A stretch of DNA of 64,000 bases from positions 11,629 through 75,628 of the IMG/VR virus record IMGVR_UViG_3300005253_000045. One strand, written 5' to 3'. Below, piece by piece: positions 4,885 through 62,251 of this stretch (the stretch's first letter is position 1; each line of letters starts with the position of its first letter). This DNA is from a virus. The notes below the pieces were generated by a model. It searched no databases. It saw only the letters and a program-made list of their open reading frames with translations, and was not told the origin of the DNA. Made by a program: the position numbers and the translations under genes.

Positions 4885-5451
4885 ATGCCGCGGCGCCCGT
4901 CCGAGCTGTCTACACGCAAGCCCCTTGTAGCGCCCAGAACACCTAGGGCACCTGGCCGTAAGGAGGCATTCGAGCGGGAGGGCGTAGAACTGCGCCCCCT
5001 AGCCGGCCCCGCTATTCCTATCCCGCCTGAGCAGGAAGAAGCTCTCCTTGCGCGTTATGAGGGGTGGAAGGCACAGTGGAACGGGTCACTGCCAGAGTTC
5101 CTCGTCTTCGAGTTTCTCACTATCGAGAAGAACCTCATACCGAACTTCGACTTTGTATTTCAGCACCCGCTCTTTGGAGGTAGAACACGCTGGGGCGGGT
5201 TCATTCTTGACTTCTTTTTCAACATGCGCCAGGAAGGATGGCGTGTAATGGGTGAACGCTACCACCTCGAGCAGCCGGCCGACCGCGCCCGGGACGCTGT
5301 TGCAGCTACCCAACTCATGGCCCAGGGTATCAAAGTCATTGACCTCTGGGAGAGCGACTTGATGACCCGAAGGGACTTCGTTCTCAACCTAGCCTGGGAG
5401 CAGGGGGCCAGTGTCATATCGCGTGCGCCCTTTGGGGCGGGGGCTGTCTAA
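4885..5451 (+). CDS. DUF559/Vsr-like PD-(D/E)XK nuclease-fold protein
   Basis: FQHP..FILDF..GERYH..ARD..L..QGIKVIDLWE pattern. Confidence 0.6.
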   Translation: MPRRPSELSTRKPLVAPRTPRAPGRKEAFEREGVELRPLAGPAIPIPPEQEEALLARYEGWKAQWNGSLPEFLVFEFLTIEKNLIPNFDFVFQHPLFGGRTRWGGFILDFFFNMRQEGWRVMGERYHLEQPADRARDAVAATQLMAQGIKVIDLWESDLMTRRDFVLNLAWEQGASVISRAPFGAGAV

Positions 5452-8400
5452 TGGCCACCTACCGCGTAGCAGTGGTCAATGAGCAAAAAAGACCCATTGC
5501 CGGCGTGGTGGTCGAGGCCGTATCCCTCAACAACTGGCCTGACGTCACCACTACTGCGGAGACCGGGCGCAATGGTACCGTACAATTCACGGGCATCAGC
5601 GGCCCTCACTGGTTCCGCCCCCGTACTCGACGCACCTCCACCGCAGTAGGTGGTCGGGTCTACACTGGTGCAGTGGAAGTACAGGTCGTAAACTCAGGGG
5701 GAGAGAAGGTGTGCGTTGACTTCGTTGTTGACTGCGATGGTATGGGCACGCACACCACCCTTGCCGCGGCCATCGCTCAGGCTATCACCGACCAAGCTAA
5801 TCGCGTCATCTTCCTCTGCTGTAGTGTCACAGAGTCCGACATCGAAATCGGTGGGCTGGCTGGCGGCCAGAGCATTACCATTATCTCGCATCAGAACCGC
5901 CGCGCCATCATCACTACTAACTCCGACGAGGATATGTTCAAGCAGACGTCTAATGGCGGAGGGTCGCCTGACGGCGGACTGTTCCTCAAGGATATTGGGC
6001 TGACGATAACTACAGCAGGCTACGCCGTATTCCTGTGCGACACTGGCACAGAGATAACGAATATCTCGGCGGAGCGTGTAGACTTCAATGGCGGTTACTT
6101 TGTACGGAACGATTCTGCCCAAGACGCGATGGGCAACCTGGACATTCGGATTGTTGAGTGTATAGGGGGGCTAACAGGCTTCTACCAAAACGAGGGCTCC
6201 ACCCCCCCTAACGACCTTTACGCCCTCGACAACGATATGACACTGACGCACTGGTGGAAGGAACTGTCTGCCGGCGCAGAAGGGGCAGAGACCAACGCTG
6301 CAAACAGCTCCAATGTGGTTGGGGGGAGCTATACCGTCTCAGAGTGGATGACGATTGCGCTCTCTGGGAACTTCAATAGGTGGGCATTCAAGGACTTCAT
6401 CCTAACCAGTGGCTGCTCGGGTGCACACTTCCGCCACAGTGCCACGGATACCAATCACCGCGGGGTACACTACTCCGACATCCTGTTCATCGCTACAGCG
6501 AATGACACCGACTTTGGTGACTTCCAGGGGCCGGCCGCCAATCCGCAGGATAACCTATACATTGTAGGTATCCATGGGGTTGCGCAATCGGGCGTGACTC
6601 CGAGTGGTACATTCCTCGCAGTAGATACAGACCAAACAAACCCCTATGTCGCGGACATCTGGGCGCCCGCATGGCCTACCGTCTACAGTGGCCCCACCAT
6701 CACGCCCGCAGTACCTCCTGTTATAGACCACGACGACCTAGCCAATGTTACAAGTGACCAGCACCACGCACTGAGCCATGATATTCTCTCCACCGACCAC
6801 CCCGACACCCTCGCGGCATCTGTTGTACGGGGCGACCTCCTATTAACCAACGCAACACCAGTGCTAGCACGGCTACCGATTGGCGCAGCATCCACCTATC
6901 TGAAGTCAGACGCTACCGACGCTGCATGGGCCGCTATCCAGGCCGCAGATGTCGGACTGCCTATCATCGGTACTCCTACTTATGATAGCGTAGAAGGCCT
7001 GAACACCGTCTTCCACTCTGCTGGCTGGATTAGTCCTGGTGGGGTAATTTCTGATGCTGGGGGGGCGACAATCAATGTCACTGCCGGTGATGGGATGCTC
7101 CGTTCCTCAGATAGCCCAGTGGCTCAACTTAAGTTCATTGAGTGGCCAGCATCGAACGGTCTGGCCATCACCGCAGATAGCATCCGCTACATCGGAGTAG
7201 AACTCAACGACCCTAATGACCCACAGGTCGTCGTCCGCACGACCAACAACTTCAACAACAACACCGACTTCATACTCGGCACAGTAGTCAATGACGGAGG
7301 CGTGCTACACGTCCAGAACGCACCGTGGGAGGTTGGCGACCATGCCAACTTTATGATTCAGCGGACGCGCGGGACGGCTCCCATCGCCCGCGACAAAGAG
7401 GTCGGCGGCATTATCTTTTCGGAGAGTGGCACGCGACGAGTAGTTGTCAGTGCGGGCCAACTTTGGAGGGGGCTGACGGCCTTCGTCATAGGTGCCCTTG
7501 ATACCGACCCTGGCGGCGCTGCCGACACCTTCGATGAATACTCATCACAAGGCAAGGAAAATACCGGCATCGCTCAGTGGCCAAACACGCTCTATGACAA
7601 CGGTTCGGGTGGAACCGGCTCGTTGCAAACGATGGGAAACAACAAGTGGGCGAACCTCTGGTGGTACATCGAACTGGACACCGAGCTGGTCATGGTCTAC
7701 GGGACAGCTCAGTATAACACCCGGACCGAGGCTGAGAACGAAGACATTCCTAGTACCTTGCCGGACAGATTGCAGGTGCATGGCATTCTGGCTGCGAGAT
7801 TCATCTTCCAGAAGTCTGCGGCTACGGCGGCGGAGATACTGAGCGCCTTCGATACCCCCTTCACGCCGAGCGGAGTGACGCTCCACGCCGACTTGGGCAC
7901 TGTTACGTCCGGCCAGCACCACACTCAGGCTCATAAGGACGAGCATGACCCCGAAGACGGAGCTGACGCCCTAGACACGGCCAACGCCGCAGAGATTAGT
8001 GTGGTTGTCGCTGCCGGTACAGGCTCGTCTCACTCCCTTGCCCGCGCAGACCACGTTCACGCCATCGTCCACGCTATCACAGACAACCATATCGTCACCA
8101 TCGACGGTGGTGGCGCGGGTGCTCCTGCCAGTGGGGAGTATGCGAAGTGGACAGCTAGTGGGTTGGAAGGAAAGAGTGCCGCTGAAGTAGCAGGCGACAT
8201 CGAGGGGAGTATTGACCACGGTTCTATTGGCGGTCTTGGAGATGATGATCATACGCAGTATGCTCTACTTGCGGGGCGGACTGGTGGTCAGATTATTTAC
8301 GGCGGAGAAAATGCTAGTGCATTCTTGGTTCTTCGCTCTACTAGTCATGGGACAAAGGGCGACATTGCACTTCAACAGGCCACTATCATTACCTTGACGG

Positions 8401-12247: not shown

Positions 12248-12469
12248 ATGGGCAAACCAAGCTACTTCCGCAAGATACTTATCTCTATCGACCAACTCTT
12301 CAATACAATCCTGGGGGGTTGGCCGGATGAGACGATTTCCTCGCGCCTAGGAAAGAAGGCACGCGAGGGGAACCCCTGGGCGAAGTATGCGTGCTGGCTC
12401 ATCGGTAAGGTCTTCTTCCACAACACCCGCCACTGCTCTGAGGCGATAGAGGAGGATGAAGGTGACTAG
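12248..12469 (+). CDS. Small conserved phage protein
   Basis: IDQLFNTILGGWPDETISSRLGK motif common near tail/lysis genes. Confidence 0.65.
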   Translation: MGKPSYFRKILISIDQLFNTILGGWPDETISSRLGKKAREGNPWAKYACWLIGKVFFHNTRHCSEAIEEDEGD

Positions 12470-12731
12470 TACAGAAGCGCGTTTAGATACCATTGACGAC
12501 GCCCTCGACCAGGTATTCGACAAGGTTGAACACCTAGCTGACTGGACCCACACGCACGATGAGGAGCACGTCAACGAGGACAAGCGAATGAACCTTCTCC
12601 TCACTCAGCTAACAGAGCATGACACCAACCACCACGGGCGGGCTTCAACTATCAAGCAGAGCGGATGGGTTGCAGGCGCCCTGACTATAGTCTACGTGGT
12701 CGCCGAACTTCTCCGGCAGTTCCTAATCTAG
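12456..12731 (+). CDS. Coiled-coil protein with C-terminal TM helix (holin-like candidate)
   Basis: Hydrophobic C-terminus WVAGALTIVYVVAELL. Confidence 0.5.
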   Translation: MKVTSTEARLDTIDDALDQVFDKVEHLADWTHTHDEEHVNEDKRMNLLLTQLTEHDTNHHGRASTIKQSGWVAGALTIVYVVAELLRQFLI

Positions 12732-22381: not shown

Positions 22382-25030
22382 TCAAACCGACTTCAGGCTA
22401 CCGAAGGACTGACCAATTTGCACATCGACGGGTATCTGCCACCCCAGCTTCTCCCCATTTGTCAGCACGGTGTTCATTGCTATGTCCTGCCATAGCTCTT
22501 TCACTGTGACGGCCGCTTCCTCTAACCGGTCTAGTGGGGCGTACATTGCCAGGCTGTCGTGCATCTCCATGATAGGCTCGACCCAGGAGGATAGCTCCCG
22601 CTCAGTAGCGATGTGGGCTAAGGAGTGTAGGTCGTGGGCTCCTGACTGCACGGGCATGTTGAACCCCTGACGGACGACGCCCTCTAGGTCCCCCCGGTAC
22701 CGCAGGGCTTTGAGGATGGGCACCTCAAGGAATTGCCGGCGCCGGCCAAACTTGTTGCCGATAGACCCCCGCTGGAACATCTCCTCCCGAACGCGAAGGA
22801 AGAAGGGCGCCATGTTTGGAAAGATGTACTGGATGTAGTGCGCGAGGAGTGGAGCAGCCTCTTGTACCGAGCACCCAAGGCGTTGTGCCGCGCCCTCTTC
22901 AGTCAGGCCATAGTTCATACCGAAGACAAACGTCTTACCGCGGTCACGAATCGTCTTGTACTTAGTCTTCCACTCCTCGAGAGAGAGGCCGTCGTCTACG
23001 ATGTCGGCGGGGAACCTGCTGGAAACTCCCAGCTTACATAGCTCTCGAGCAACGTGAGCATGGATGTCGGCCCCACTCAACAGAAGATTGAGGAGCACCT
23101 CATCCCCAGTCTCGTAGGCCATGACCCAGACCTCGGCCTGGCTCCAGTCAGCATTTATCATCCCAAAACCAGGAGGCGAACCGAACATATCCCGGACGGC
23201 ATCGTCCGAGTCAATCCCATACTTCTCGTCGTGGATAGAGATGTCCTTAGGGGGGTTCATGAGGTTAGGATACTCGCAGGAGAAGCGTCCTGTTGCTGCT
23301 CGAGCGGAGTTCCAGCGGGCGTGAATGCGGCCGTCCTCCCGGATGTGGAACCGGAAACCGCCGTCCTTTCCCCCGTCCATGTAGGTACCCGAGAACTTCT
23401 CAAGGTGGCGAATGTCGACGAGAATGGGTAGTCCCTCATGTTGTACCCGCTCATTCAGCTCTTTCAATTCGTCGGCGCCCGTCTTCGCGTGTTGGGATGA
23501 GCACGGCGCCTGTGCCTTTTTACACTTCTGGCACTCCTTACGCGCACTGTCTATAGGGGTGGCGGTAAGTGGTAGCCCCCACTCCTCGAAGACGAGCTTC
23601 TGCACAGTCTGGTAGTAAGAAGGCTTCTCTACCTCACGGCCTACGAACTCGTTCAGCCTCTCCTTCTCCGTATCTAAGCGGTCTCGGTAGTAGAGGCAGA
23701 GTTTGTCGAAGTGCTCTTGGTCTATGTATACTCCCCGCTCCTCTAGCTTTGTGGCGCAGCGAATGAGAGGGATGCTGATATTATCGTAGACCCACAAGGA
23801 CTTTTCTTCTTCTACCTGTGAGTGGAGGATGGGAACTAGGGTCTGTACTACGTCGACGTCGGCGCCGGCGTACTCCCATAGTTCCTTGTCCGGGACTTCC
23901 CACATTTTCGATTTCATGGATTTCAGCCCAGCCTCGTAGTACGGTATGTCCGTATGAAGTGCCGTTAGGAGGGTGAGGTTGGCTGGAGTAGACTCTGACA
24001 TGAGCGTCGATAGAAGACGGGTGTCCTGCTGGACATTGTTGACGTGGAACCCAAAGGCGGTAGAGACAGTGACCACCTTCTCGTCGACGCTACGCTCCAA
24101 CATCCTGAGGTCGAAACCAATGTTCTGCCCGGCCTTTGGCTTATCCGAGCGGAGGATTTCGTCGAGGATTTCTATCACCTCGGGTAGTTCGGTATCCAAG
24201 TCCCAGTAGGGTACTGGGCACCACTCTGTCTCAGGAACCTCCTTACGATTCTTCCCCCGCCCCTTCATTTTCATGACTGTGCACTCGCCGCGGTGAAGGA
24301 TAGGGACAGCGTACCCTATGCCCTCATCGGCTGTGAGACTTACGCAGAGCAGCTCTGAGTCCATCCAGCTTAACCCCGTCGTCTCAGTATCAACAGAGAT
24401 GATGGAAACGTCAGGCCCTAACAGGTAGTCTCGCAGGGCTCGAAGGTCTTCTAGGGTCGTGATGCCTGCGTATGAGCCGTACTTCTCGGCGACGCCTCCC
24501 TGCTCCATGATGCGCTTGGCCTTGCGGAAGTGTGCTAGCACCAAGGCCGCCTCATCCCAGTGCCCACGAGAAATATAACTGGGGTGGTAGGTTGGAATCA
24601 CAGGTATGCCCGGGAGCTCATCGTTATAGAGGGTGAAGCCCATCACCTCCCGTACGCCGACCCCCGGTTTGTACAGGGAGCGGATAGCCGGGCCTCCAAG
24701 GGCGACGATGACTGAGGGGTTGACGGCCCGCAACTCCTCTATGAGGTAGTCATGGCAGGCGTCTATCTCTGAAGGCTTCGGGTTTCGCTCGCCCCAGCAG
24801 CGCGTGGCGTTTGTGTAGTAGGATAGATGCTGGTTGATACCGGCCGCCCACTCCATGATGCGGAGTACACGGCCCGCCTTACCCACAAAGGGGCGCCCCT
24901 TCTGATTCTCGAAGGCACCTGGGCCCTCACCAACGAAGGCTATCTTAGCGTGTGTTGGCCCTGTGCCGTTGACCACACACTTCCGCCCTTGAAGAGCTGG
25001 GCAGCGGCTACAGTCCTTAGGAGGAGGCAT
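22382..25030 (-). CDS. polA: DNA polymerase A with N-terminal family-4 uracil-DNA glycosylase and 3'-5' exonuclease
   Basis: CSRC, GEGPG, PFVG.AG, YHPS (UDG4); DTETTG (ExoI); ADWSQAE, KTFVFGMNYG, MHDS (motifs A, B, C). Confidence 0.95.
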   Translation of the reverse strand: MPPPKDCSRCPALQGRKCVVNGTGPTHAKIAFVGEGPGAFENQKGRPFVGKAGRVLRIMEWAAGINQHLSYYTNATRCWGERNPKPSEIDACHDYLIEELRAVNPSVIVALGGPAIRSLYKPGVGVREVMGFTLYNDELPGIPVIPTYHPSYISRGHWDEAALVLAHFRKAKRIMEQGGVAEKYGSYAGITTLEDLRALRDYLLGPDVSIISVDTETTGLSWMDSELLCVSLTADEGIGYAVPILHRGECTVMKMKGRGKNRKEVPETEWCPVPYWDLDTELPEVIEILDEILRSDKPKAGQNIGFDLRMLERSVDEKVVTVSTAFGFHVNNVQQDTRLLSTLMSESTPANLTLLTALHTDIPYYEAGLKSMKSKMWEVPDKELWEYAGADVDVVQTLVPILHSQVEEEKSLWVYDNISIPLIRCATKLEERGVYIDQEHFDKLCLYYRDRLDTEKERLNEFVGREVEKPSYYQTVQKLVFEEWGLPLTATPIDSARKECQKCKKAQAPCSSQHAKTGADELKELNERVQHEGLPILVDIRHLEKFSGTYMDGGKDGGFRFHIREDGRIHARWNSARAATGRFSCEYPNLMNPPKDISIHDEKYGIDSDDAVRDMFGSPPGFGMINADWSQAEVWVMAYETGDEVLLNLLLSGADIHAHVARELCKLGVSSRFPADIVDDGLSLEEWKTKYKTIRDRGKTFVFGMNYGLTEEGAAQRLGCSVQEAAPLLAHYIQYIFPNMAPFFLRVREEMFQRGSIGNKFGRRRQFLEVPILKALRYRGDLEGVVRQGFNMPVQSGAHDLHSLAHIATERELSSWVEPIMEMHDSLAMYAPLDRLEEAAVTVKELWQDIAMNTVLTNGEKLGWQIPVDVQIGQSFGSLKSV

Positions 25031-41577: not shown

Positions 41578-41659
41578 TGGTGGAGGTGGCCAGTGTCGAA
41601 CTGGCGTCCGGCCGGCCGCGCCTTAGCGCGTTATCCAACCGTCGAGCCCTCTCACCCCC
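41578..41659 (-). ncRNA. ssrA: Mini-tmRNA (tRNA-like domain only)
   Basis: GGGGGUG/CACCUCC-ACCA acceptor with G3:U70, stemless D-loop ending UCGAC, helix GGUUGG/CCGGCC, GGAC linker, T-arm GCCAG-UUCGACA-CUGGC; TATAAT at 41665-41670. Confidence 0.85.
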
Positions 41660-45959: not shown

Positions 45960-45989
45960 TGTCTCTTCCCCTCTCTCTACTGATAGTGA

Positions 45990-46117
45990 GAGAGGGTCGC
46001 CGGTTGGCACTCAACGGCCCCGCGCACGCCACCGCGCCACGGGCATGACTGGTAGGTGCTGCATTGAGCGCGTGGGTAAGAGCCATGCGCCCTGGCCATC
46101 GTACCGGCGACCCTCTC
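45990..46117 (-). ncRNA. Putative structured RNA
   Basis: Perfect 15-bp closing stem directly after a promoter-like motif. Confidence 0.45.
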
Positions 46118-46152
46118 CTACTATATATTGTCGGCACTTTTGGGCAAAACTG

Positions 46153-46685: not shown

Positions 46686-47104
46686 GTTAGGCTATACGCT
46701 TGACACTCTTAACCGACGTCGGCCGGCCGTTGCGAGAGTCGAAGTGCAGCAGAGTCTTACGCGCTACCGTCTGTTCGTCTCGCGTGCCGTCTGCATACTT
46801 GATTCTGTAGGTAGGCATAGTCTACTCCTCTGTGGGGACTTCCGATGTACTAGCGGTTATTCGTATGCGTGTTCTGGTAGACCAGGCGCGAACGTGCGGC
46901 CACAGCCGCTATCTATTACGCCTTGCAGCACGTCCTTGCCCCCTTGCCCGCATGTTACCGCCTCTGTAACCGCCTCAATTTCTGTGTTGATAAGGTTACA
47001 GTCGGGGCATATCCAGTCATACCCGCTGGCGATTAGGTCAACTCTATCCATCGTCTGCTCCTCTACCTGCTAGAATGCCGAACCCGTGACGGGTTCGCAT
47101 TGAT

Positions 47105-47668
47105 AGAGACGTCCGGTAGCCGCAGGGCTAGCATGGTCGCCTCAGTAGGCGGGTACAAACGTTGGCCCTGTTGCGTGGTCTCGATGGTCATGCACCGCCT
47201 CTTCCAGCGCCTCAAGCGCCCTCATGTGGAGAAGCTCTGAGTCGCTGTAGGGTTCGCCGTGGGCGATTGTGCCCTCGCGGGGGTCTGTAAACTCCGTTTC
47301 GTAGTGTCCCCGCCATTCGCAACGCTGGCAAGCGATGACAACGCCAGCCATACCGTCTGACACTACGCGGAACGCCGATTCAAACATGATGATACCCGCT
47401 AGCACCGTGGGCACTCCATGCTATCAGGCTCTTGGTTTGGTACAAGCCCTAGCCGTAGCTCGCCAGCATATACGGCTTGACTGAATCCTGCGTTGGGCGA
47501 TTGTAGCTCTTCGTTAGAGTATGGCTCGCCGTTGTCGGACGCCCCCATTACATCCTTGAGTGCAGACGTGGTCAGTACCAGTGCGGCTCGTAGCTGTTCG
47601 TTAGTAGCGTTGGGCATGGTCGTTACTCCTATCTGTTGGCGCTAACCCAGCGGCTACCGGATGTCTCT
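47105..47668. repeat. Stem C: 28-bp inverted repeat enclosing ORFs 47142..47414 and 47399..47617
   Basis: Arms 47105-47132 and 47641-47668, 3 non-WC positions. Confidence 0.88.
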
Positions 47669-47669
47669 T

Positions 47670-47974
47670 GAGACCAGCGAAACACGGCGCGTTAGCATGC
47701 GGTTACTTCGACGGGATGCCGCAGTCTGTACAGTTTTCGGGGCAGCAATTCGGGCAGTGGCCGTCGCTGGGTGTAACATGTCCTGGCTCCTCGGTGCATT
47801 CTCCGGCCACACAGCATTGCGGTTCGGTTAGCTGGACGCAGGGTTCGCAGCTACACACGCAGCTATCCTTACCCGTGCAGAATGTATAGGCGTCGTTACA
47901 GTGATTGATTGTTTCGTCGTGTGACATTGCGTGTTGCTCCTCTCTATGCTAACGCGCCGTGTTTCGCTGGTCTC
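47670..47974. repeat. Stem D: perfect 29-bp inverted repeat enclosing Cys-rich ORF 47703..47927
   Basis: GAGACCAGCGAAACACGGCGCGTTAGCAT at 47670-47698; reverse complement at 47946-47974. Confidence 0.92.
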
Positions 47975-48193
47975 TTGAGGGGACACAGAGAGCGGGGCGT
48001 CATAGTTCCCTAGGCTCTCGCTATTAGCCATTCTATACGTGTCCGTGGGCGCTTCCAGCCTATGCCGTGGCATGGCCGGTGCATCTTGTCATGGTCACAT
48101 GTCGAATTGCAGTCAAGGCAGTATAGGACGCCCTCGCCTTCACAGGTAATACATATGAGCCAGTCGGTATCCTTGTATCGGAACATGGCGCAC

Positions 48194-48457
48194 TTACTTG
48201 ACCGCGAATCCGGCAACCTTGCGGGCAATTCTAACATGGCCGGACGTCGTAACGCGGTAGAAGCCTTCAGACGGTACAGCGTGACCGCCTACGGTTACTT
48301 GCTCGCGGGCCGTGTAGTTGAATACTACCGGTACATTGTTTCGCCATTCCCCGATACAGAGTTCGTACGAATGGATTGTCCGGCCGTCTGTATGCATGTG
48401 TGCGCTAGCGCCGGCCTGACCGTTTGCCCAGGCTTGCGCTACCTGTTGGTTCGTCAT
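48194..48457 (-). CDS. Conserved-type phage early protein
   Basis: VAQAWA..IHSY..IG..Y.VTTS.H pattern. Confidence 0.6.
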   Translation of the reverse strand: MTNQQVAQAWANGQAGASAHMHTDGRTIHSYELCIGEWRNNVPVVFNYTAREQVTVGGHAVPSEGFYRVTTSGHVRIARKVAGFAVK

Positions 48458-48478
48458 TGGCGTGTCTCTCCCTTCTCC

Positions 48479-48878
48479 CTCAAAACCCCTTGTCAGTCAC
48501 TCCATGTATTCGCCTAGCCTTTGTACCGTGGGTTCGGCACGGGTACATAGGCCGGCTCTTCCGTCTCGTAGGCGTCGCTCCCATCCTCATTCCATACGTC
48601 GCAGAAGCCTGTATATGCCATCGCATCCGGCCCGCGTAGCTCTGCTGGTATCAGTAGGACTCGAATCGAGTCACTGTATCGCTCCAACGCGTTCCGCCCG
48701 AATGGGTTATTGTCGGCATCTACTAGCTCAAGGTATCTGGTCAGCGCCTCTTCTACGTTGTGGAAGGCACCAGACTGCATCATGTAGCCGCTACCTCGCG
48801 GGTGTTGGACGTGTGCGTGGTACAGCATAGTCGTTTACTCCCTTCGGTATTGGGGAGTGACTGGCAAGGGGTTTCGAG
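48479..48878. repeat. Stem A enclosing ORF 48514..48828
   Basis: Arms 48479-48503 and 48854-48878, 23/25 WC pairs. Confidence 0.9.
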
Positions 48879-48885
48879 AGTGTGC

Positions 48886-49175
48886 TACCAGATGCCACCT
48901 ACAAGGGGTTCCGCGTTGCTGTGTGTTGCTATCCTGCCTTCTGTACCGTTTCAAGACGCTCATAACTTGTTCGGAATCCCTATTGCTCCCCTATTCTCTC
49001 AGAGCTGCAATATGCTTTATGAAACACACGCTTAAACCTGCATCTTGCACTAATTCTCGTAACCATGCTTCACTGTCTGTTTGTTTCATCCGTAGATAAG
49101 CATGGATAATCTCGTGAAGATTCATGTTTGATTTCCTCCTGTTGGGGCGAAACCCCCTGTAGGTGACACCTGATA
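48886..49175. repeat. Stem B enclosing 44-aa ORF 48991..49125
   Basis: Arms 48886-48914 and 49147-49175; all 5 mismatches are G:U on the - strand. Confidence 0.88.
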
Positions 49176-49186
49176 ACGGAGCGTTG

Positions 49187-49525
49187 CCTCAATACCTAGA
49201 GTCAGTCACTCCATGTATTCGCCCTAGTTGCCTGTTGCGGCCTTGCGTGGCTGGGCCGCTTCCGTTGTCCCTAGACGCTCTACCGTCCGTATAGCGTCCG
49301 CCCTGTCTACACAAGGTATGGTTTGTATCTGCGAGTTAAGCGGCCCAGCGAACCAACCGTATGGAGTGCTCCATACCTGGCCGATGATACGCCCTTCACT
49401 GTTACGGATACCGTGTGAGCCGCGCTCAACTGGCGCGTCCGCTTGGAATCTCCCTGTCCGGCTATCTTGTGTCATTGTGCGCTCCCTTCCCAATAGTGGG
49501 GAGTGACTGACTCTAGGTATTGAGG
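49187..49525. repeat. Stem A' enclosing ORF 49224..49475
   Basis: Perfect 26-bp arms 49187-49212 and 49500-49525. Confidence 0.92.
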
Positions 49526-49531
49526 GTGTGC

Positions 49532-49837
49532 TACCAGATGCCGCTGACAAGAGGTTCCCGTGCTGCCTATTAGACGGTTACGTATATATACTTTCGCGTG
49601 TCCGTGTGCTTGAAGCCCCACTCTACATGGCCCCGCCACGGCGTTCCGTGCATCAACATGTATTCTTTGGGGTTGCGGCCGGTGGCTATGAGTGCTTGCC
49701 ACACGGCATCCCATTGTGGGCTGTCACGTTCTGCGAATATGTAGCCGTTTGGGTTCGAGTCTACCGTGCCGTCTGGATTGAACGTAGCCATGGTACGCGC
49801 TCCTATCCCGGAAACCCCTTGTCAGTGACACCTGATA
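49532..49837. repeat. Stem B' enclosing ORF 49570..49791
   Basis: Arms 49532-49560 and 49809-49837; 5 G:U and 1 A:C on the - strand. Confidence 0.88.
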
Positions 49838-50302
49838 ACGGAGCGTTGCCGTGTGGCGAGTCTGACGTCCCGCTCTCTGTGTCCCTCTCTATTTATTTAC
49901 CGAGTGAGCCTCACGAGGTTGCTACCCGTTGCCCCTCTGTCCGCCTCTGCTAGTGCGTTGTCCGTGCGTGCTAGCTGCGCGGGGGCCGTAGTCACCAACC
50001 CCTGTCCGGTATGCTCCTGGCCGGCCATACGGGCCGCTATGCCCTGCCGGCCATTGGAGTGCTGTGTCTTGGCCTATCTCATCAGATACGGGCGGCCATT
50101 CCCGTATGACTACCGCCATAGTTTCGACTGTGCTAGGCGTATCTGCTCTTAGCTTCCGTGCTAACACCTAACCAACATCGGGTACATACCCATACGATAC
50201 CGTTGTACCGTTCAATCTTGCTTCCGCACTCCCCGCACGGGCTTTCGGCGTGTCGCCATGCATATACTCGTGTCATTGTCGCTACTCCTCCTCTCGCCTC
50301 TA

Positions 50303-50339
50303 TCATCGGTAGTCTATCATAGACCTGAAGGGCTGTCAA
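50303..50339 (-). promoter_or_regulatory. Major early promoter (sigma70 overlapping a sigma28-like motif)
   Basis: TTGACA-17-TAGACT; TTCA-15-ACCGATGA. Confidence 0.7.
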
Positions 50340-50384
50340 GGGTATGGAGCTAATCAAGGCCAGGGGCAACTGCGGCTAATGGCG

Positions 50385-50660
50385 AGTGCCTCACTCTAGG
50401 TATCAGGGGTATGGGCGGGCTAACCAGGTGTGAGGGACAATGGGTTGTCAGTGACTCGGGGTGCTGGGTGCGCTAACCAGGTGTCAGTGACTCGGGGTGC
50501 TGGGCAGGCATGCGACATCATCTCGCATGATACATCATCCGCACGATACATGTCTAGTCGCGCCATACATCATTCGCGCCCGCGCAGGGTCGTCCGTGCT
50601 GGTACGGGGGCGTTATGGTGTGTTATGGGAAGGGTGACGTTATGGTGTGGGTGTTGGGAG
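50385..50660. repeat. Non-coding short-repeat region, candidate genome end/pac/origin
   Basis: TGTCAGTGACTCGGGGTGCTGGG x2, GCTAACCAGGTGT x2, ATACATCAT x2, CGTTATGGTGTG x2. Confidence 0.6.
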
Positions 50661-51295
50661 TGATAGGTTAGACCCCACACACTCTACGCTGAAAATTGGA
50701 GAGAAATTGAGAAAACCTGCCGCCACAGGCTGGTTTCACATAGGGGGTGTCGTAAGGAACAGGGCATCACCTCCTTCGTTTAACGGGTGTAGCCTACTCG
50801 TGCTTTACTTGACTTTGGCCCGCTCATTGTGGTGTCGCGCCTCTTCCTCCGCAGCGTCGAGGTCCCAGAGCACCCTCCGTACCATGTTGCCGAAGTCGAA
50901 CTTCCAGCCGGCGCCGCTTTTCGGCAGCAAATTGGCCACCCGTTGCAATTCGGCCCGGTCGATGGCTGTTGTCATTGACATTTCGCGCCTCCTGCCTCCA
51001 TTATAGCGCATTTTCGCGTGCTACGCCGGTCCACCCGGTCGAAACAGGCCGCCAGAACCGCTTTCGGCGGCTTCAGAGTGCCTATCGCGCCACTAATACC
51101 TGCCCGAGGGGGATTTCTGGTACTCTGATGTCATTCTCCACCGGTTTAGCCGGCGACGCGGCGTTTCATCGTATGAGCCGGGGTGTTCGAGTGAGTGACA
51201 CCCGATAAATGTTATGGCTGGTGCGCAAAAAAAGAAACGACCGCCACGGATTACGAGAATATACGCGCAATCGCGTAGGCTAGGGGATTATTCGC

Positions 51296-52054
51296 CTAAT
51301 CGTCCGGTTCAGACTCTAGTTGGGGGTGCTCGTGTGTGCCTATAGGCTCCCAGCCATCTTCGTCCGTAGCTCGAATTAAGTCTCGGTGAGCTGCCTCGGC
51401 TCGCTCTGCCCTCTCGTTTTCATCGTTGGGGACACACCCGCAGCACTGGCCGTCGTTAAAGGGGTTGATGCACCAGTAGTTGCCGTCCATGCAGGGGCCG
51501 TCGTCTCGGCGCCACCCTTCCTCCTGGAGGTCTATCTCTACTCCACAGCCCGGACAAGTTGTGTTGGGGGGTAGGTCATAGTTACGCTCTGCGAGCTCGA
51601 CGTCGAAGTCGGCCCACTTACGTCTTTCCTTTTCCTCTGCTTCGGCCTCTGCCACCCGTACACGGGCGGCTATTTCCTTTTCGCCTGAGTTTTCTAGGGC
51701 TGTAGCTAGTTGTTTAAGTGTATCTGCGGCACTCCTCGCGGCCTCTGCTTCCATAATTTCCGTGGCACCCATTTCGGCCGGAGGGTCTTCAAGCTCCCAC
51801 ACCTCAGCATAGTCCGAGACGGTCTTGATGAGGCACTTCGTGCATTCCCACCACCAGCAGGTCTCTTCCCGGTCGACGTCAGCGTAGTACACCTCGTAGT
51901 AGGATGCCCAGGGACGGAACGTGTCGCAGGTGTCGCATCTCTTGAAGTACCTGCGTGTGGGCTCCTGAGTCCAGGCGTTGGCTGTACCGTGTGCGCATCC
52001 ACCGTGGAGGTCTTGTCCTTTCATTTTGAACACCTTGCTATGTAGAAACTTCAC
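51296..52054 (-). CDS. Hypothetical Cys-rich acidic protein
   Basis: Several CxxC motifs. Confidence 0.6.
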   Translation of the reverse strand: MKFLHSKVFKMKGQDLHGGCAHGTANAWTQEPTRRYFKRCDTCDTFRPWASYYEVYYADVDREETCWWWECTKCLIKTVSDYAEVWELEDPPAEMGATEIMEAEAARSAADTLKQLATALENSGEKEIAARVRVAEAEAEEKERRKWADFDVELAERNYDLPPNTTCPGCGVEIDLQEEGWRRDDGPCMDGNYWCINPFNDGQCCGCVPNDENERAERAEAAHRDLIRATDEDGWEPIGTHEHPQLESEPDD

Positions 52055-52709
52055 CGTGACACCCCCAAGAACTCTAGGAGGGCCGTCACCTGCGCCGGCG
52101 ACAGCAGCACGCGGTCGACGAGTCTTTTGCTCTCTCTGTCGTACTGGTCGATACCGATGTGGCCACGCACCTTACCCCCCGTAGCGTCGAAACTAACGGG
52201 CCATCTGAAGTTGCGCTTGCCGCCAGGTATCTTCTCGCTGTAGACTGTTCGTTCCATCTAATCCTCCTGCTCCCACGCCTCAATCTCTTCGTCACCCAAG
52301 CCGCACATGAAGACATGGTCCTCGTTTGGGTGGGGGGTTGGTAGTAGGCAGCGACTTTGCCCCAGTTCTACCGGGACGTACTTTTTGCATTGGGGGCCGT
52401 CTGGTAGAAAGGCTGCTGCTATGTCGCGGGCCAGCACCGGTAGGTCGTCTAGGTGTGTTTTGTCACAAGTGTCCTTGTTCATGAGTTCTATCTCCTCTTC
52501 TGGAAACGGCTCAATGAGGACTTCGTTACAGGCCATGCAAATGGTTCGGCCATAGTCGTCGCCCTCGCCTTCGTACACCTTGTTCCACGGGTGGACGCAG
52601 GCGCCTATGTCCTCGGGCTTCTGTGTGTGGTAGCTGACGGCGGGGCAGGATTCGATTTCGTACTCTAGGGCTTTAATCTCTGAGCGAAGTTGGGATTCGG
52701 CATTGGCTC

Positions 52710-52895
52710 TCATCGTGGGTTCCTCTGGGCGCCGGTACCGCCGTCGACGCTGAATGATACTACCTGTGGCACCCAATCTCCCGCCCTCCCACACTTACCA
52801 TGGGGACAGCCGGCGATGGGGCGTACGGTCTCCGAGATGTTGTAGGCGACCTCGAACTCACCGTGTTGCTCGCAGATATAAATCTGAGTTGGCAC
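52710..52895 (-). CDS. FmdB-like zinc ribbon protein
   Basis: MPT..Y.C..HG.FE..CP..C. Confidence 0.6.
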   Translation of the reverse strand: MPTQIYICEQHGEFEVAYNISETVRPIAGCPHGKCGRAGDWVPQVVSFSVDGGTGAQRNPR

Positions 52896-53154
52896 TAGGT
52901 ACTAGCCTCCGTAGCTTTTGTGGTATATCGGTGTAGATAGGGAGAGTATGGGCCGATGTTGCGTTTCGTAATCCTCCCCGTTGTCGGATACCACCAATAC
53001 CGTTGGTCGCAAGTGGTTGTGTTGCAGAAAGCTACGACCTTCCGCGGATAGAATATCTGGGTGCCATCGAACGCGATGCAGAGTGATAGGTCTTTAACCC
53101 AGATGGCGTCGTAGTCACACTGTGGGCATTTGGTCATGATGTACCTCCGTCTTC

Positions 53155-53237: not shown

Positions 53238-53564
53238 ATGCCTATCAGACCAAGACCAAAATCCGCGTTCCCCGTATCCGACACCGCAACATCATTCGAC
53301 GTAACACTGGCTGTACCGGCCACGGCCGAACCCCTCGTAGCAGTTCCCGGTGGAGACAAGGGGAGAATCTTGTCCCTAATCAACGAGGGCCCCGGTAGTG
53401 TAGCGCTGGCCTTCGATGCCGTGGCCACTGTCTCCGACTTCCTGCTGGAAGAGGGCGATGGCTACGATGAGCACGACTTGGAGATTAGCTCCGAGATTTC
53501 GTTCATCAACGTCACCCCGGCTGTTTCGCCGCGTGTCCGTGGCGTTCTTTGGAGCGGTGGATAA
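53238..53564 (+). CDS. Small beta-rich protein, possibly virion
   Basis: SD GGGAG; first gene of + block. Confidence 0.55.
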   Translation: MPIRPRPKSAFPVSDTATSFDVTLAVPATAEPLVAVPGGDKGRILSLINEGPGSVALAFDAVATVSDFLLEEGDGYDEHDLEISSEISFINVTPAVSPRVRGVLWSGG

Positions 53565-53900: not shown

Positions 53901-54497
53901 ATGCCCCCTAACTTGTCCCGACTTCGGCGAGATAGAGTTCGCAACAGGCGCCAGTCCACTAGGATAGCGAGTGCGGGTATACGTACTGCCCTTGCTGAAC
54001 TACCGCCGGCCGCCGCGGCGCAGGCCGCTAGGATTCCCGTAGCGTCCCGGGCTCGTCCGTTTTCTGCCGAAGCTAGTCCTACAGTCGAGGCTCGTGCCTC
54101 AAACCCTGTTCAATTCTCTACTGGGGCGACAGGACGTCTTCGTGCGTCGACCCAGCGTGTTAAGGGTGTTGCCCGGCATGAGGTTGCTCATCTGCTTGGT
54201 GCAGGGCACCCGGCACTCAGTGCGGCAACGCGAGGAACCCAGCTTCCTAAGACCGGCGTTCAAACAGCACAAGCCGCCCGCTTTGAGACTGAGCCGCGTT
54301 TGAGGCGTCAGCGTATTTCACGTACTCGAGCCGGGGTAAGTCGTCCAACTTCACAAGTGTCGGCCGTGGTACGCCCGGGTACGATGCGCGGTAAGTTTAT
54401 GAAGTTCGGTTCAGAGGATACTGAGCGGGGCCGGCGACTACGAAGGCAAAGTCTAAACATGGCCCTCAAGTTACGAAAAGCCGGCAGAGACTTCTAG
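53901..54497 (+). CDS. Arg-rich protein with HExxHxxGxxH motif
   Basis: RHEVAHLLGAGH. Confidence 0.5.
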   Translation: MPPNLSRLRRDRVRNRRQSTRIASAGIRTALAELPPAAAAQAARIPVASRARPFSAEASPTVEARASNPVQFSTGATGRLRASTQRVKGVARHEVAHLLGAGHPALSAATRGTQLPKTGVQTAQAARFETEPRLRRQRISRTRAGVSRPTSQVSAVVRPGTMRGKFMKFGSEDTERGRRLRRQSLNMALKLRKAGRDF

Positions 54498-60265: not shown

Positions 60266-62251
60266 ATGGCTATTCCAGGCGCTGCTGTTATTCAAAACAC
60301 TCCCCAGTTGGACGCATTGAGGGATGTTCTTCTCAGGCGGCAGAGAGAGCTGAAGAATTACTGGCGGCCACTTTCACTCCGCCAAGACTATTGGTTGCAA
60401 ATGTACAGACTGATAGACGTCCTCCAGCAGTCGAAACCTCTGGGAGTAGCGCGGCGATTCATCTCTAATGAGCCTCGTACGGGCGTCGACGCCGCCTGGC
60501 AGATTCTTACCCGCAACCCTATTACGTGGCGGATACCCCTGAATGGCGCGGAGGATGAAAATCAGGAAATGCGCCGGCGGGTAGGACGCATCGAACGTAC
60601 GTTAGAGGGGCTAGTCTACGATGCAGACGAGCTCTTTGGGATGCGCCTCCAGCCTTCCCTCTGGAAGCAGGTCGTCTTCCAGGGCCTTCTCCGCGGGATG
60701 ATTTGGGGTAAGTTCCATATCACCATAGAGGCCCTCCAGTATCGTCGTTCCCCCCTCATCGCGGAAATCTACGACGCTCGTACGGTGTTCCCCCATGTCG
60801 ACCAGTGGGGCCTGAACCATGTCCTCATCGAGAAGCCTACTACGCTAGGTGACCTGGCGGCCACATACCCCGACAAGTTCAATGACCTGCTCACCAGCTC
60901 GAATTACGACCCTCATACCCCCGCCCTGAAGTTGGAGTACTGGAGTAACGACCGTGGGGAGCGTAAGGGAATCGCCGCAGTACTTGCTACTGTGGGTTCC
61001 CCTGTAGCCGCCGGCTCTCTATCGGGTATGGCGGTCGCCGATACGATGGGTAAGGATGCTCGTTGGGTAGTGCCACCCTTCTTCCACGGGTACACATACG
61101 ATGAGCTTCCGGTGGTGGGTGTGCCGGTAAATGGCCTCATGCTGTCGCATACGCCCCCAATCGCCTCTTCCCTCGAGCATAGGTTGCAGGAACGGGCCGA
61201 CCTACTTGCGATGAATGCACTGGCATGGAACGGCGCGAACTCCTCTGTGGCCGAGCTTGGGCGCTCCATATTGAGCTCGGTGGAGGAGCAGGTTCCGCAG
61301 TATAATGAGCTGGTCGCTACTATCTTCCAGCACTTGACTAATGACACGTACGATACCCTTATCTTCAAGACTCCTACCGGCGACCTGCCCGAGTTTGAGC
61401 GGGGCATCGGGGCACATATCCCCCTCGGCCCTCAGGACTCTGTGGAAAAGCTAGCTACTTCGCCTATGCCGACAGACGCGTATCGTCTACTGGACATTCT
61501 TGCTGAGGAGCGGCAGAAGGGTATTCTCTCAAACGTGCTTCAGGCAGTGACTCCAAATCTCTCGAGTGGTGTCCTCCTCCAGCAGATTACTAACGCAGCA
61601 CTGAGTTCGATAGAGCCGTATCTGGCGGGGCCTAAGGAGTTTGGTACACGCATGGGCACGACTATCCTAGCCCAGATGAAGAAGGCCGCTCCCATCATCG
61701 GGATGTTCGAGCTCCAGTCATCTACGCCAAAGAAGACGTGGTTCAACATCGAGTTCGACCCCCAGACAGAATTGGATGAGGCGCGGCACTACCGGCCGGT
61801 ACCAATTATGAAGCCGGCACTACCAGACGACCTGACTGTCCGTATGACGGCCGCACGCATGGCGCTCGACCCGCGACGTCCGATGCTGTCCTTGATGACA
61901 GTCATGGAAGAGATTCTCTTTGTCGACGACCCCACGGCGGAAGCAGACCGTCTGTGGGAAGATATGGCCATGCAAGACCCGGTTATCATCCTCGAGCAGA
62001 TGGCTATGGCACTGGAGCGCCACGGCGAAAAGGAGATGGCGGCACGTATCCGCGACCAGGAGTTTGCTACGAAGTTCGTAGAGGAGCAGAAGCTCCGCCA
62101 GATTACTCAGGGTGCTGGTCAGGGCGAACCGCCTGGCGCCGCTCCTGCGGCCGGCCCGCTGTCCCAGAGCACTGCCCGGGATGGCACAGAGCGTAACCTA
62201 CCTGACGGGGCACAAGCGGCCGGCGCCGCAGGCATGAGAGCTGAGGTATAG
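60266..62251 (+). CDS. Portal protein
   Basis: 661 aa directly after terL; helical, SSGV..Q motif, low-complexity tail. Confidence 0.8.
   Translation: MAIPGAAVIQNTPQLDALRDVLLRRQRELKNYWRPLSLRQDYWLQMYRLIDVLQQSKPLGVARRFISNEPRTGVDAAWQILTRNPITWRIPLNGAEDENQEMRRRVGRIERTLEGLVYDADELFGMRLQPSLWKQVVFQGLLRGMIWGKFHITIEALQYRRSPLIAEIYDARTVFPHVDQWGLNHVLIEKPTTLGDLAATYPDKFNDLLTSSNYDPHTPALKLEYWSNDRGERKGIAAVLATVGSPVAAGSLSGMAVADTMGKDARWVVPPFFHGYTYDELPVVGVPVNGLMLSHTPPIASSLEHRLQERADLLAMNALAWNGANSSVAELGRSILSSVEEQVPQYNELVATIFQHLTNDTYDTLIFKTPTGDLPEFERGIGAHIPLGPQDSVEKLATSPMPTDAYRLLDILAEERQKGILSNVLQAVTPNLSSGVLLQQITNAALSSIEPYLAGPKEFGTRMGTTILAQMKKAAPIIGMFELQSSTPKKTWFNIEFDPQTELDEARHYRPVPIMKPALPDDLTVRMTAARMALDPRRPMLSLMTVMEEILFVDDPTAEADRLWEDMAMQDPVIILEQMAMALERHGEKEMAARIRDQEFATKFVEEQKLRQITQGAGQGEPPGAAPAAGPLSQSTARDGTERNLPDGAQAAGAAGMRAEV

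Follow-up and report, generated by a model that had tools for sequence, protein, structure and literature searches.

The 64,000-nucleotide (nt) stretch analysed here (the window) comprises bases 11629-75628 of the IMG/VR virus record IMGVR_UViG_3300005253_000045, a 75,628-bp sequence of an uncultured phage with direct terminal repeats. Between positions 47105 and 49889 it carries an array of small genes that are enclosed by the arms of long inverted repeats. Minus-strand genes run from approximately 53.8 kb to 12.7 kb, and thus the array sits in the first few kilobases of a leftward operon, which is presumably early. A preliminary description made from the sequence alone had placed seven inverted repeats at this locus, and all of them were recovered by a repeat finder and by our own scans (Table 1). 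The stems are 23-31 bp in length and their loops span 232-1860 nt with whole open reading frames (ORFs) inside. The earlier claim that the loops are complete genes also holds, as each stem loop contains one or two ORFs with a Shine-Dalgarno (SD) sequence and a stop codon. The annotated frame is favoured by codon usage in nine of ten ORFs, while none of the cargo proteins matched a Pfam or PHROG family.

The units share a regular architecture, and the arms stay out of the ORFs. In this phage the start codon lies 17-25 nt past the 5' arm and the stop codon 4-11 nt ahead of the 3' arm (76 nt in B); when the relatives described below are included, the start lies 17-31 nt past the 5' arm and the stop falls between 7 nt inside and 25 nt before the 3' arm, B again excepted. 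Neighbouring stems are separated by 0-9 nt overall. Stems E, D, and C abut through the junction reported in the preliminary description (..CCCCTC-AA-GAGACC.. and ..GGTCTC-AA-GAGACA..), and B', A', B, and A follow one another within E at gaps of 3-9 nt. This nested layout is best read as the result of an insertion, in which the A/B block came to separate the leader of an ancestral E unit from its SD.

Table 1. Coordinates of the gene-enclosing stems, their cargo, and associated elements (window positions for this phage, own positions for each relative)
Genome	Feature	Position	Strand	Description
This phage	Stem E	49889-49863 / 48002-47977	-	5' arm GAGAGGGACACAGAGAGCGGGACGTCA; encloses 1.86 kb and four stems (B', A', B, A); mean pair probability 0.84
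This phage	Stem B'	49839-49809 / 49560-49530	-	31 bp: 24 Watson-Crick, 6 G:U, 1 mismatch
This phage	Stem A'	49525-49500 / 49212-49187	-	26/26, perfect
This phage	Stem B	49177-49147 / 48914-48884	-	31 bp: 25 Watson-Crick, 6 G:U, no mismatch
This phage	Stem A	48880-48854 / 48503-48477	-	27 bp
This phage	Stem D	47974-47946 / 47698-47670	-	29/29, perfect; 5' arm GAGACC...GTTAGCAT
This phage	Stem C	47668-47640 / 47133-47105	-	29 bp
This phage	Cargo ORF of B'	49570-49791	-	73 aa, SD AGGAG
This phage	Cargo ORF of A'	49224-49475	-	83 aa
This phage	Cargo ORF of B	48991-49125	-	44 aa
This phage	Cargo ORF of A	48514-48828	-	104 aa
This phage	ORF in E, no own stem	48194-48457	-	87 aa
This phage	ORF in E, no own stem	48010-48186	-	58 aa
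This phage	Cargo ORF of D	47703-47927	-	74 aa, Cys-rich
This phage	Cargo ORF of C	47399-47617	-	72 aa
This phage	Cargo ORF of C	47142-47414	-	~87-90 aa, start uncertain
This phage	Type II hammerhead ribozyme	50068-50129	-	Rfam RF02276, 39 bits vs gathering score 37, E 3.4e-5, model 1-66 of 66
This phage	Candidate sigma-70-type promoter	50311-50339	-	TTGACA-17-TAGACT with TG; precedes the first ORF of the operon; consensus scan only
This phage	Extra A/B-family arm copies	50377-50500	-	Two to three copies, no strong partner; core GTCACTGAC, in two followed by CACCTGGTTAGC
G001	Genome			28.6-kb fragment
G002	Genome			50.5-kb fragment
G003	Genome			75,576 bp, complete
G003	Stem 1	4895-4921 / 5186-5212	coding	27 bp, abutting
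G003	Stem 2	5213-5243 / 5727-5757	coding	31 bp, abutting
G003	Stem 3	5757-5784 / 5963-5990	coding	28 bp, abutting
G004	Genome			70,832 bp, complete
G004	Stem 1	52636-52662 / 53017-53043		27 bp, abutting
G004	Stem 2	53047-53067 / 53474-53494		21 bp, abutting
G004	Stem 3	53496-53525 / 54202-54231		30 bp, abutting
G004	Fourth stem, elsewhere	60817-60847 / 61168-61198		31 bp

Such repeats are far more frequent here than chance would allow. A strict genome-wide scan (arms of at least 20 nt, seed 10, 60-4000 nt apart) returned seven long-range inverted repeats, all within the 4.4 kb between 45983 and 50403, compared with 0.35 on average and never more than 3 in 100 dinucleotide shuffles of the genome; a similar density in shuffled controls, which would have counted against the preliminary description, was not found. 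Stems B and B' fall outside this strict count because they rely on G:U pairs. The hexamer GGTTAG showed no genome-wide enrichment.

Several lines of evidence suggest that the pairing itself is maintained, and that it is maintained in RNA. The folding check proposed for the array showed that coding-strand RNA alone forms all seven stems: the minimum free energy structure of the minus strand at 47095-49900 contains every one of them, whereas that of the plus strand lacks B' and contains a shortened B. Pair probabilities range from 0.84 to 1.00 on the coding strand (0.94 for B', 1.00 for B), compared with 0.00 for B' and 0.62 for both B and C on the opposite strand. The covariation previously noted between the arms of A and A' amounts to five two-sided changes with none broken. 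Between the paralogous stems B and B', four two-sided changes preserve the pairing, two one-sided changes are tolerated as G:U, one position is A:C, and no double change is broken, giving nine two-sided changes kept and none broken over both pairs of stems. In a duplex-energy table of the arms, the own partner is the most stable in every row and column (-46 to -59 kcal/mol), and it is the differences between paralogous arms that make it so. Moreover, between the orthologous first stems of two relatives, G003 and G002, all three one-sided changes are kept as G:U on the coding strand.

The distribution of wobble pairs points in the same direction. The preliminary description had counted about 12 G:U against 4 other positions on the minus strand, and our count of approximately 16 G:U against approximately 5 other non-Watson-Crick positions in the stem cores has the same direction. 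Counted without strand preference, the figures are 18 against 11 in this phage and 56 coding-strand G:U against 31 A:C in 20 stems from five phages (p = 0.0097), and the stems of the relatives are longer on the coding strand owing to G:U pairs. The coding-strand wobble bias is real in direction but modest. Repeats that are inverted, private to their unit, co-varying, and tolerant of wobble on the sense strand indicate a duplex formed by one strand. With the covariation, the wobble bias, the coding-strand-only folding, and the layout in four relatives taken together, the pairing is most likely under selection, and at the RNA level.

The relatives are four IMG/VR records found with profiles of two conserved proteins, and their comparison, a check proposed in the preliminary description, showed that they share the arrangement. 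Gene-enclosing stems that abut one another are found at the head of the early operon, which matches the position of the present array, and again on the coding strand; neither complete relative (G003, G004) carries a second such cluster elsewhere in its genome. The first stem of G003 is represented in G002 by a homologue of 27 bp, along with other gene-size stems and local hairpins of 30-35 bp in intergenic spaces, while G001 has a weaker stem of 18 bp. A conserved arm word of G002 and G003 was found among viral contigs in those two phages only. An orthologous local hairpin of 31-32 bp in two relatives (L043 6152-6258 and L068 8189-8295; GGTACGCCCTGCCGC..CTGGGCCTCT / ..AGGGGTTCAG..GCGGC) shows a compensating double change from CCAC/GTGG to CTTC/GAAG and 7-8 G:U pairs on the coding strand.

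In G002, G003, and G004 the array is preceded by a large hairpin rich in GTGAGTCAC-type motifs, and this motif family has putatively become the A/B arms in the present phage. Large hairpins of CACAATGGGTTGTG / GTGAGTCAC repeats (L068 3879-4032 and 14013-14141; L071 727-921; L043 2041-2192 and 14429-14527) lie just upstream of each gene-enclosing array, with another approximately 10 kb downstream, and may be operator or promoter clusters. It is very improbable, in our estimation, that the repeats of the array are simply oppositely oriented protein-binding sites of an operator or promoter element, or leftovers of duplication, in which pairing is irrelevant. The near-palindromic core GTCACTGAC of the A/B arms does recur at 50377-50500 and does resemble the GTGAGTCAC motifs in the hairpins of the relatives, but the arms of C, D, and E are private sequences with no third copy, the density of repeats is far above that of the shuffles, and beyond the shared core the covariation of each flank is specific to its partner arm. 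For one of the copies at 50377-50500, pairing with the 3' arm of A' is possible (20 Watson-Crick and 2 G:U pairs over 25 nt); the copies may be what is left of lost units, or may act as alternative partners.

Stems C, D, and E belong with most stems of the relatives to a single arm family, which is characterised by outer ends GAGAC.. / ..GTCTC, inner ends ..GCGGGnGGTTAG / CTAACC..CGC, and a common leader running into the SD. In contrast, no loop protein resembles another, even in the nearly identical frames of the first stems of G003 (79 aa) and G002 (68 aa). In these two phages the 3' arm opens with the conserved GAGGGCTAAC (in some cases GAGGGTTAG), which provides the last two codons and the stop, the TAA within CTAAC, so that ..EG is the end of the cargo proteins; such ends are seen in stem units 1 and 3 and the second (88-aa) ORF of unit 2 in G003 (L072, 4950-5968) and in unit 1 of G002 (L064, reverse strand, 12444-12650). 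For a cargo gene of the second G003 stem, G002 has a homologue that is not bracketed. The finding of unrelated cargo in homologous frames, together with the gain and loss of brackets, indicates that frames and cargo are separable, and the conservation of the frame but not of the ORF suggests that frames double as homology for cargo exchange.

Contigs assembled from a second sample, X3, bear on the same point. One contig ends at 47699 and another starts at 47946, the two arm/loop borders of D, with a depth of 105-129 on the left side and of 265-288 on the right. A perfect 29-nt repeat alone is unable to break a k = 31 assembly graph, and the break therefore looks like a mosaic boundary between strains at D. 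Summed X3 contig depth also rises from approximately 105 to as much as approximately 1049 over 50.3-52.6 kb, where several contigs skip 15-1207 nt, and the early region 50296-53000 appears to be common to, or variable among, several co-occurring strains.

It is possible to read these observations as evidence that the primary role of the repeats lies in DNA, as mobile or exchangeable cassettes that use recombination frames or single-stranded DNA hairpins, with RNA pairing being incidental. Homologous frames with unrelated cargo, brackets gained and lost around conserved genes, the contig ends at D, and the common end motifs of the arm family (GAGAC..GTTAGC / GCTAAC..GTCTC) are all in keeping with such a role. 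However, exchange by homology requires linkers that are conserved, not inverted, and recombination between inverted arms flips a gene rather than moving it. Only on the coding strand do wobble changes preserve pairing, a structural constraint is in keeping with the 0-4 nt that separate the units in three phages, and further X3 contig ends, at approximately 46800 and 48770, lie away from the stems. No match to the integrase family PF00589 was found at E <= 1 in the 75.6-kb genome, in a scan to which the controls responded, and no transposase was noticed in a search that was not systematic. The arms also differ between units, with no consistent target-site duplications. We therefore consider a primary DNA-level role distinctly unlikely. 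A terminal-inverted-repeat transposon or miniature inverted-repeat transposable element was likewise rejected, with differing arms, inconsistent flanks (AA/AA, AA/TA, TA/AA), and units that abut. As to the excisable gene cassettes of the preliminary description, exchange over evolutionary time is supported by the unrelated cargo, the optional brackets, and the contig ends at D, whereas excision in the manner of an integron is not, since an integrase is missing.

In 47100-49900 the minus strand showed no sigma-70-like promoter and no intrinsic terminator, the promoter scan being restricted to sites of the sigma-70 type. Candidate promoters lie upstream of the array, namely the one listed in Table 1 and two others from the consensus scan (50556-50527 and 53183-53155). 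A type II hammerhead ribozyme begins in the stop region of a 47-aa ORF, approximately 180 nt 5' of stem E and on the same strand. Its core (CUGAUGA / GAAA / GUC) and three stems are readable in both sequence and alignment, and the predicted cut between C50108 and A50107 falls right behind the stop codon of the 47-aa ORF. This hammerhead, which the preliminary description had missed, would lie in the same transcript and is an independent pointer to RNA processing there. The Rfam scan identified nothing else within the array, and no hammerhead or other ribozyme in the relatives. Short contigs from X1 and X3 match the hammerhead core alone (50070-50104), with 5 differences and unrelated flanks, suggesting similar ribozymes in other genomes of the same community. 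Sequences resembling boxA of ribosomal RNA (rRNA) operons occurred at chance level, with none near the array. Two further likenesses, GGUUAGACUGCC as part of a twister ribozyme and the 5' arms as -35/-10 promoter hexamers, found no tool support and were dropped.

We propose, with about an even chance of being right, that host RNase III processes this transcript into single-gene messages with paired ends. In this model, the arms would be the two halves of helices within one polycistronic early minus-strand transcript, and each helix would close a loop containing a full translation unit, from SD to stop codon. Duplexes of 23-31 bp in bacterial messenger RNA (mRNA) are expected RNase III substrates, and the enzyme is almost universal in bacteria. 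Host RNase III would cut the 23-31 bp helices as it does the leader-trailer helices of 16S and 23S rRNA, with the upstream hammerhead adding another cut to the same transcript. The products would be single- or two-gene messages whose 5' and 3' ends remain paired and would thus be shielded from end-dependent decay. The frame, with arm, leader, and SD on one side and stop region and arm on the other, would also provide portable homology for cargo swaps between phages.

All of the evidence for RNA pairing would apply equally to helices that form but stay uncut, and that act as clamps or insulators. Such clamps could block 5'-end scanning by RNase E or RNase J and 3' exonucleases between cistrons, isolate the folding of each ribosome-binding site, bring the stop codon near its own SD, or delay translation until a cistron is complete. 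The arms lie just outside the region covered by a ribosome. The 5' arms of A and A' have an inner end, CACUCC, that is able to pair locally with the SD GGGAG until displaced by the 3' arm, and several other units show partial SD pairing. However, such sequestration of the SD is clear in A and A' but mixed elsewhere, with 0 of 4 nt paired in D, and in view of the missing control it is not used here as evidence. Near-perfect duplexes of 26-31 bp are, moreover, just what a nearly universal RNase III is expected to cut, and we regard permanently uncut helices as rather unlikely.

The suggestion in the preliminary description that the fold releases, circularises, or excises single-gene units survives with respect to a selected RNA pairing, but not for circles, as a ligase of the RtcB type is missing, nor for integron-like excision. 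Circular single-gene mRNAs would arise if the paired ends were ligated after cutting by stems or ribozymes, and we give this very little credence. It is true that the two ends of a unit are placed side by side by its stem and that a hammerhead in the same transcript would leave 5'-OH and 2',3'-cyclic phosphate ends. Against this, the only ribozyme does not flank a unit and has no counterpart in the relatives, and the phage genome does not encode RtcB. RNase III ends (5'-phosphate and 3'-OH) are not substrates for RtcB. In addition, circles were sought from gene-flanking hammerheads elsewhere and none were seen (Perreault et al. 2011, PMC3088659).

A number of observations weigh against processing by RNase III, or against RNA-level pairing as such. 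Co-transcription, cleavage, RNase III as the enzyme, and stabilisation are all steps that we infer. The phage genome encodes no RNase III and no double-stranded-RNA-binding domain. The scan for promoters within the array covered sites of the sigma-70 type only. Actinomycetota as the host group is a guess, to which the cellular homologues of one phage ATPase, nearly all from that phylum, give a weak hint. In total folding energy the coding strand has no advantage (-1103.6 vs -1118.6 kcal/mol), and the one non-Watson-Crick position of stem E is a wobble on the opposite strand. After stems related by descent are dropped, the wobble bias is reduced to 41 against 25 (p = 0.064). Brackets are optional, with one gene bracketed in G004 but unbracketed in G000, G002, and G003. 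Finally, DNA-level conversion between arms could also produce two-sided changes, although the retention in B' of the six G:U pairs of B argues against a simple homogenisation of arms by conversion.

Known systems resemble the array in part. In the early polycistronic RNA of phage T7, a host double-strand RNase cuts at local intergenic hairpins to give gene-length, stabilised messages. The present array is similar in that a phage early polycistronic RNA would be cut by host RNase III, but here the helix spans a gene and pairs the two ends of its message; local intergenic hairpins were limited to those in the relatives and one of 22 bp at 45983-46124. The latter has a 98-nt loop, lies on the minus strand just downstream of the array, and is overlapped by a weak promoter-like site (46147-46120). 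Integron cassettes carry boxes GTTRRRY and RYYYAAC, and their attC site is a local hairpin at the cassette end that needs an integron integrase. Both systems are arrays of small promoter-less ORFs with imperfect inverted repeats whose ends are conserved, and the inner ends GTTAGC/GCTAAC loosely recall the boxes; however, this phage has no integrase, the repeats span the gene, and a 3' arm is complementary to the next 5' arm only at GTCTC/GAGAC and GCTAAC/GTTAGC.

A further likeness is with the processing of rRNA. Long-range leader-trailer helices of approximately 25-30 bp around 16S and 23S in rrn operons are cut by RNase III, and units in a row are each flanked by a helix of comparable length, with nested or adjacent helices (PMC6582327). 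The array likewise has seven flanking helices of at least approximately 20 bp, together with covariation. It differs in that the units are protein-coding cistrons with an SD in a phage. As many as seven helices fall within 2.8 kb, four of them nested inside another, while there is no boxA-like signal and cleavage is a prediction. In prophages, single genes or short gene blocks can be flanked by hammerheads, for which a role in cutting long phage transcripts down to gene length has been proposed (Perreault et al. 2011, PMC3088659). The transcript predicted here would also carry a type II hammerhead, but there is only one, with none in the relatives, and most cuts would need the helices and a protein nuclease. 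The PeSL elements of T4-type phages consist of a strong local sigma-70 promoter and a terminator stem-loop, repeated in direct orientation, and accompany early genes that are small, variable, and non-essential (Arbiol et al. 2010, PMC2839356). In both cases conserved motifs flank small early genes that are exchanged between related phages, whereas the flanks here are complementary, inverted, and private to each unit, and no sigma-70 promoter or terminator lies in the arms. No account of phage mRNA helices that enclose genes turned up in a full-text literature search, incomplete in coverage.

The phage itself has few recognisable relatives. Its sequence was found in three runs, all of DNA, from one marine-sediment study, and in no run recorded as RNA. 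BLAST of the window against deposited phage genomes in near and distant modes gave no match, and a 15-nt arm word had 37 matches among viral contigs, none related by BLAST. Neither the cargo protein of 104 aa nor the ATPase, each used as a single-sequence query, had a match among viral contigs. An identical ATPase is carried by three contigs. Among metagenome contigs, the D-arm word had 0 matches, and a profile of a 169-aa protein recovered just two short contigs. Other encoded proteins include a DnaB-like helicase, an SF2 helicase, a DUF5925-AAA ATPase, and a family A DNA polymerase (22382-25030, minus strand) with an N-terminal domain of the uracil-DNA-glycosylase superfamily (PF03167, E 1e-26) that precedes its 3'-5' exonuclease and polymerase domains. 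No T7-type RNA polymerase was found in the phage genome. A match to the transfer-messenger RNA (tmRNA) model at 41578-41659 on the minus strand covers 82 nt and the tRNA-like domain only (53 bits vs a gathering score of 47), with weaker copies in relatives (L071 5747-5819 and L064 14548-14638); this tmRNA-like element points to a bacterial host.

Tentatively, and with less confidence than we attach to the processing itself, the frames may represent a plug-in expression socket that forms a recurrent, undescribed class in tailed phages. After cleavage by the host, a standard pair of co-evolving arms would make any ORF an autonomous message with paired ends; paralogous arms would have diverged enough against mispairing, and the frames would serve as recombination handles for trading the first-expressed host-takeover genes. 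If the stems are cut, these phages use the logic of rRNA maturation to make stable single-gene messages from an early polycistron, and an expression layer of phages is absent from current annotation and models of mRNA decay. The most variable early genes of phages are typically those for host takeover and counter-defence, and conserved frames with free cargo would explain how variable early genes can be shuffled without loss of expression. Moreover, arm pairs that do not cross-pair could be natural insulator parts for synthetic operons.

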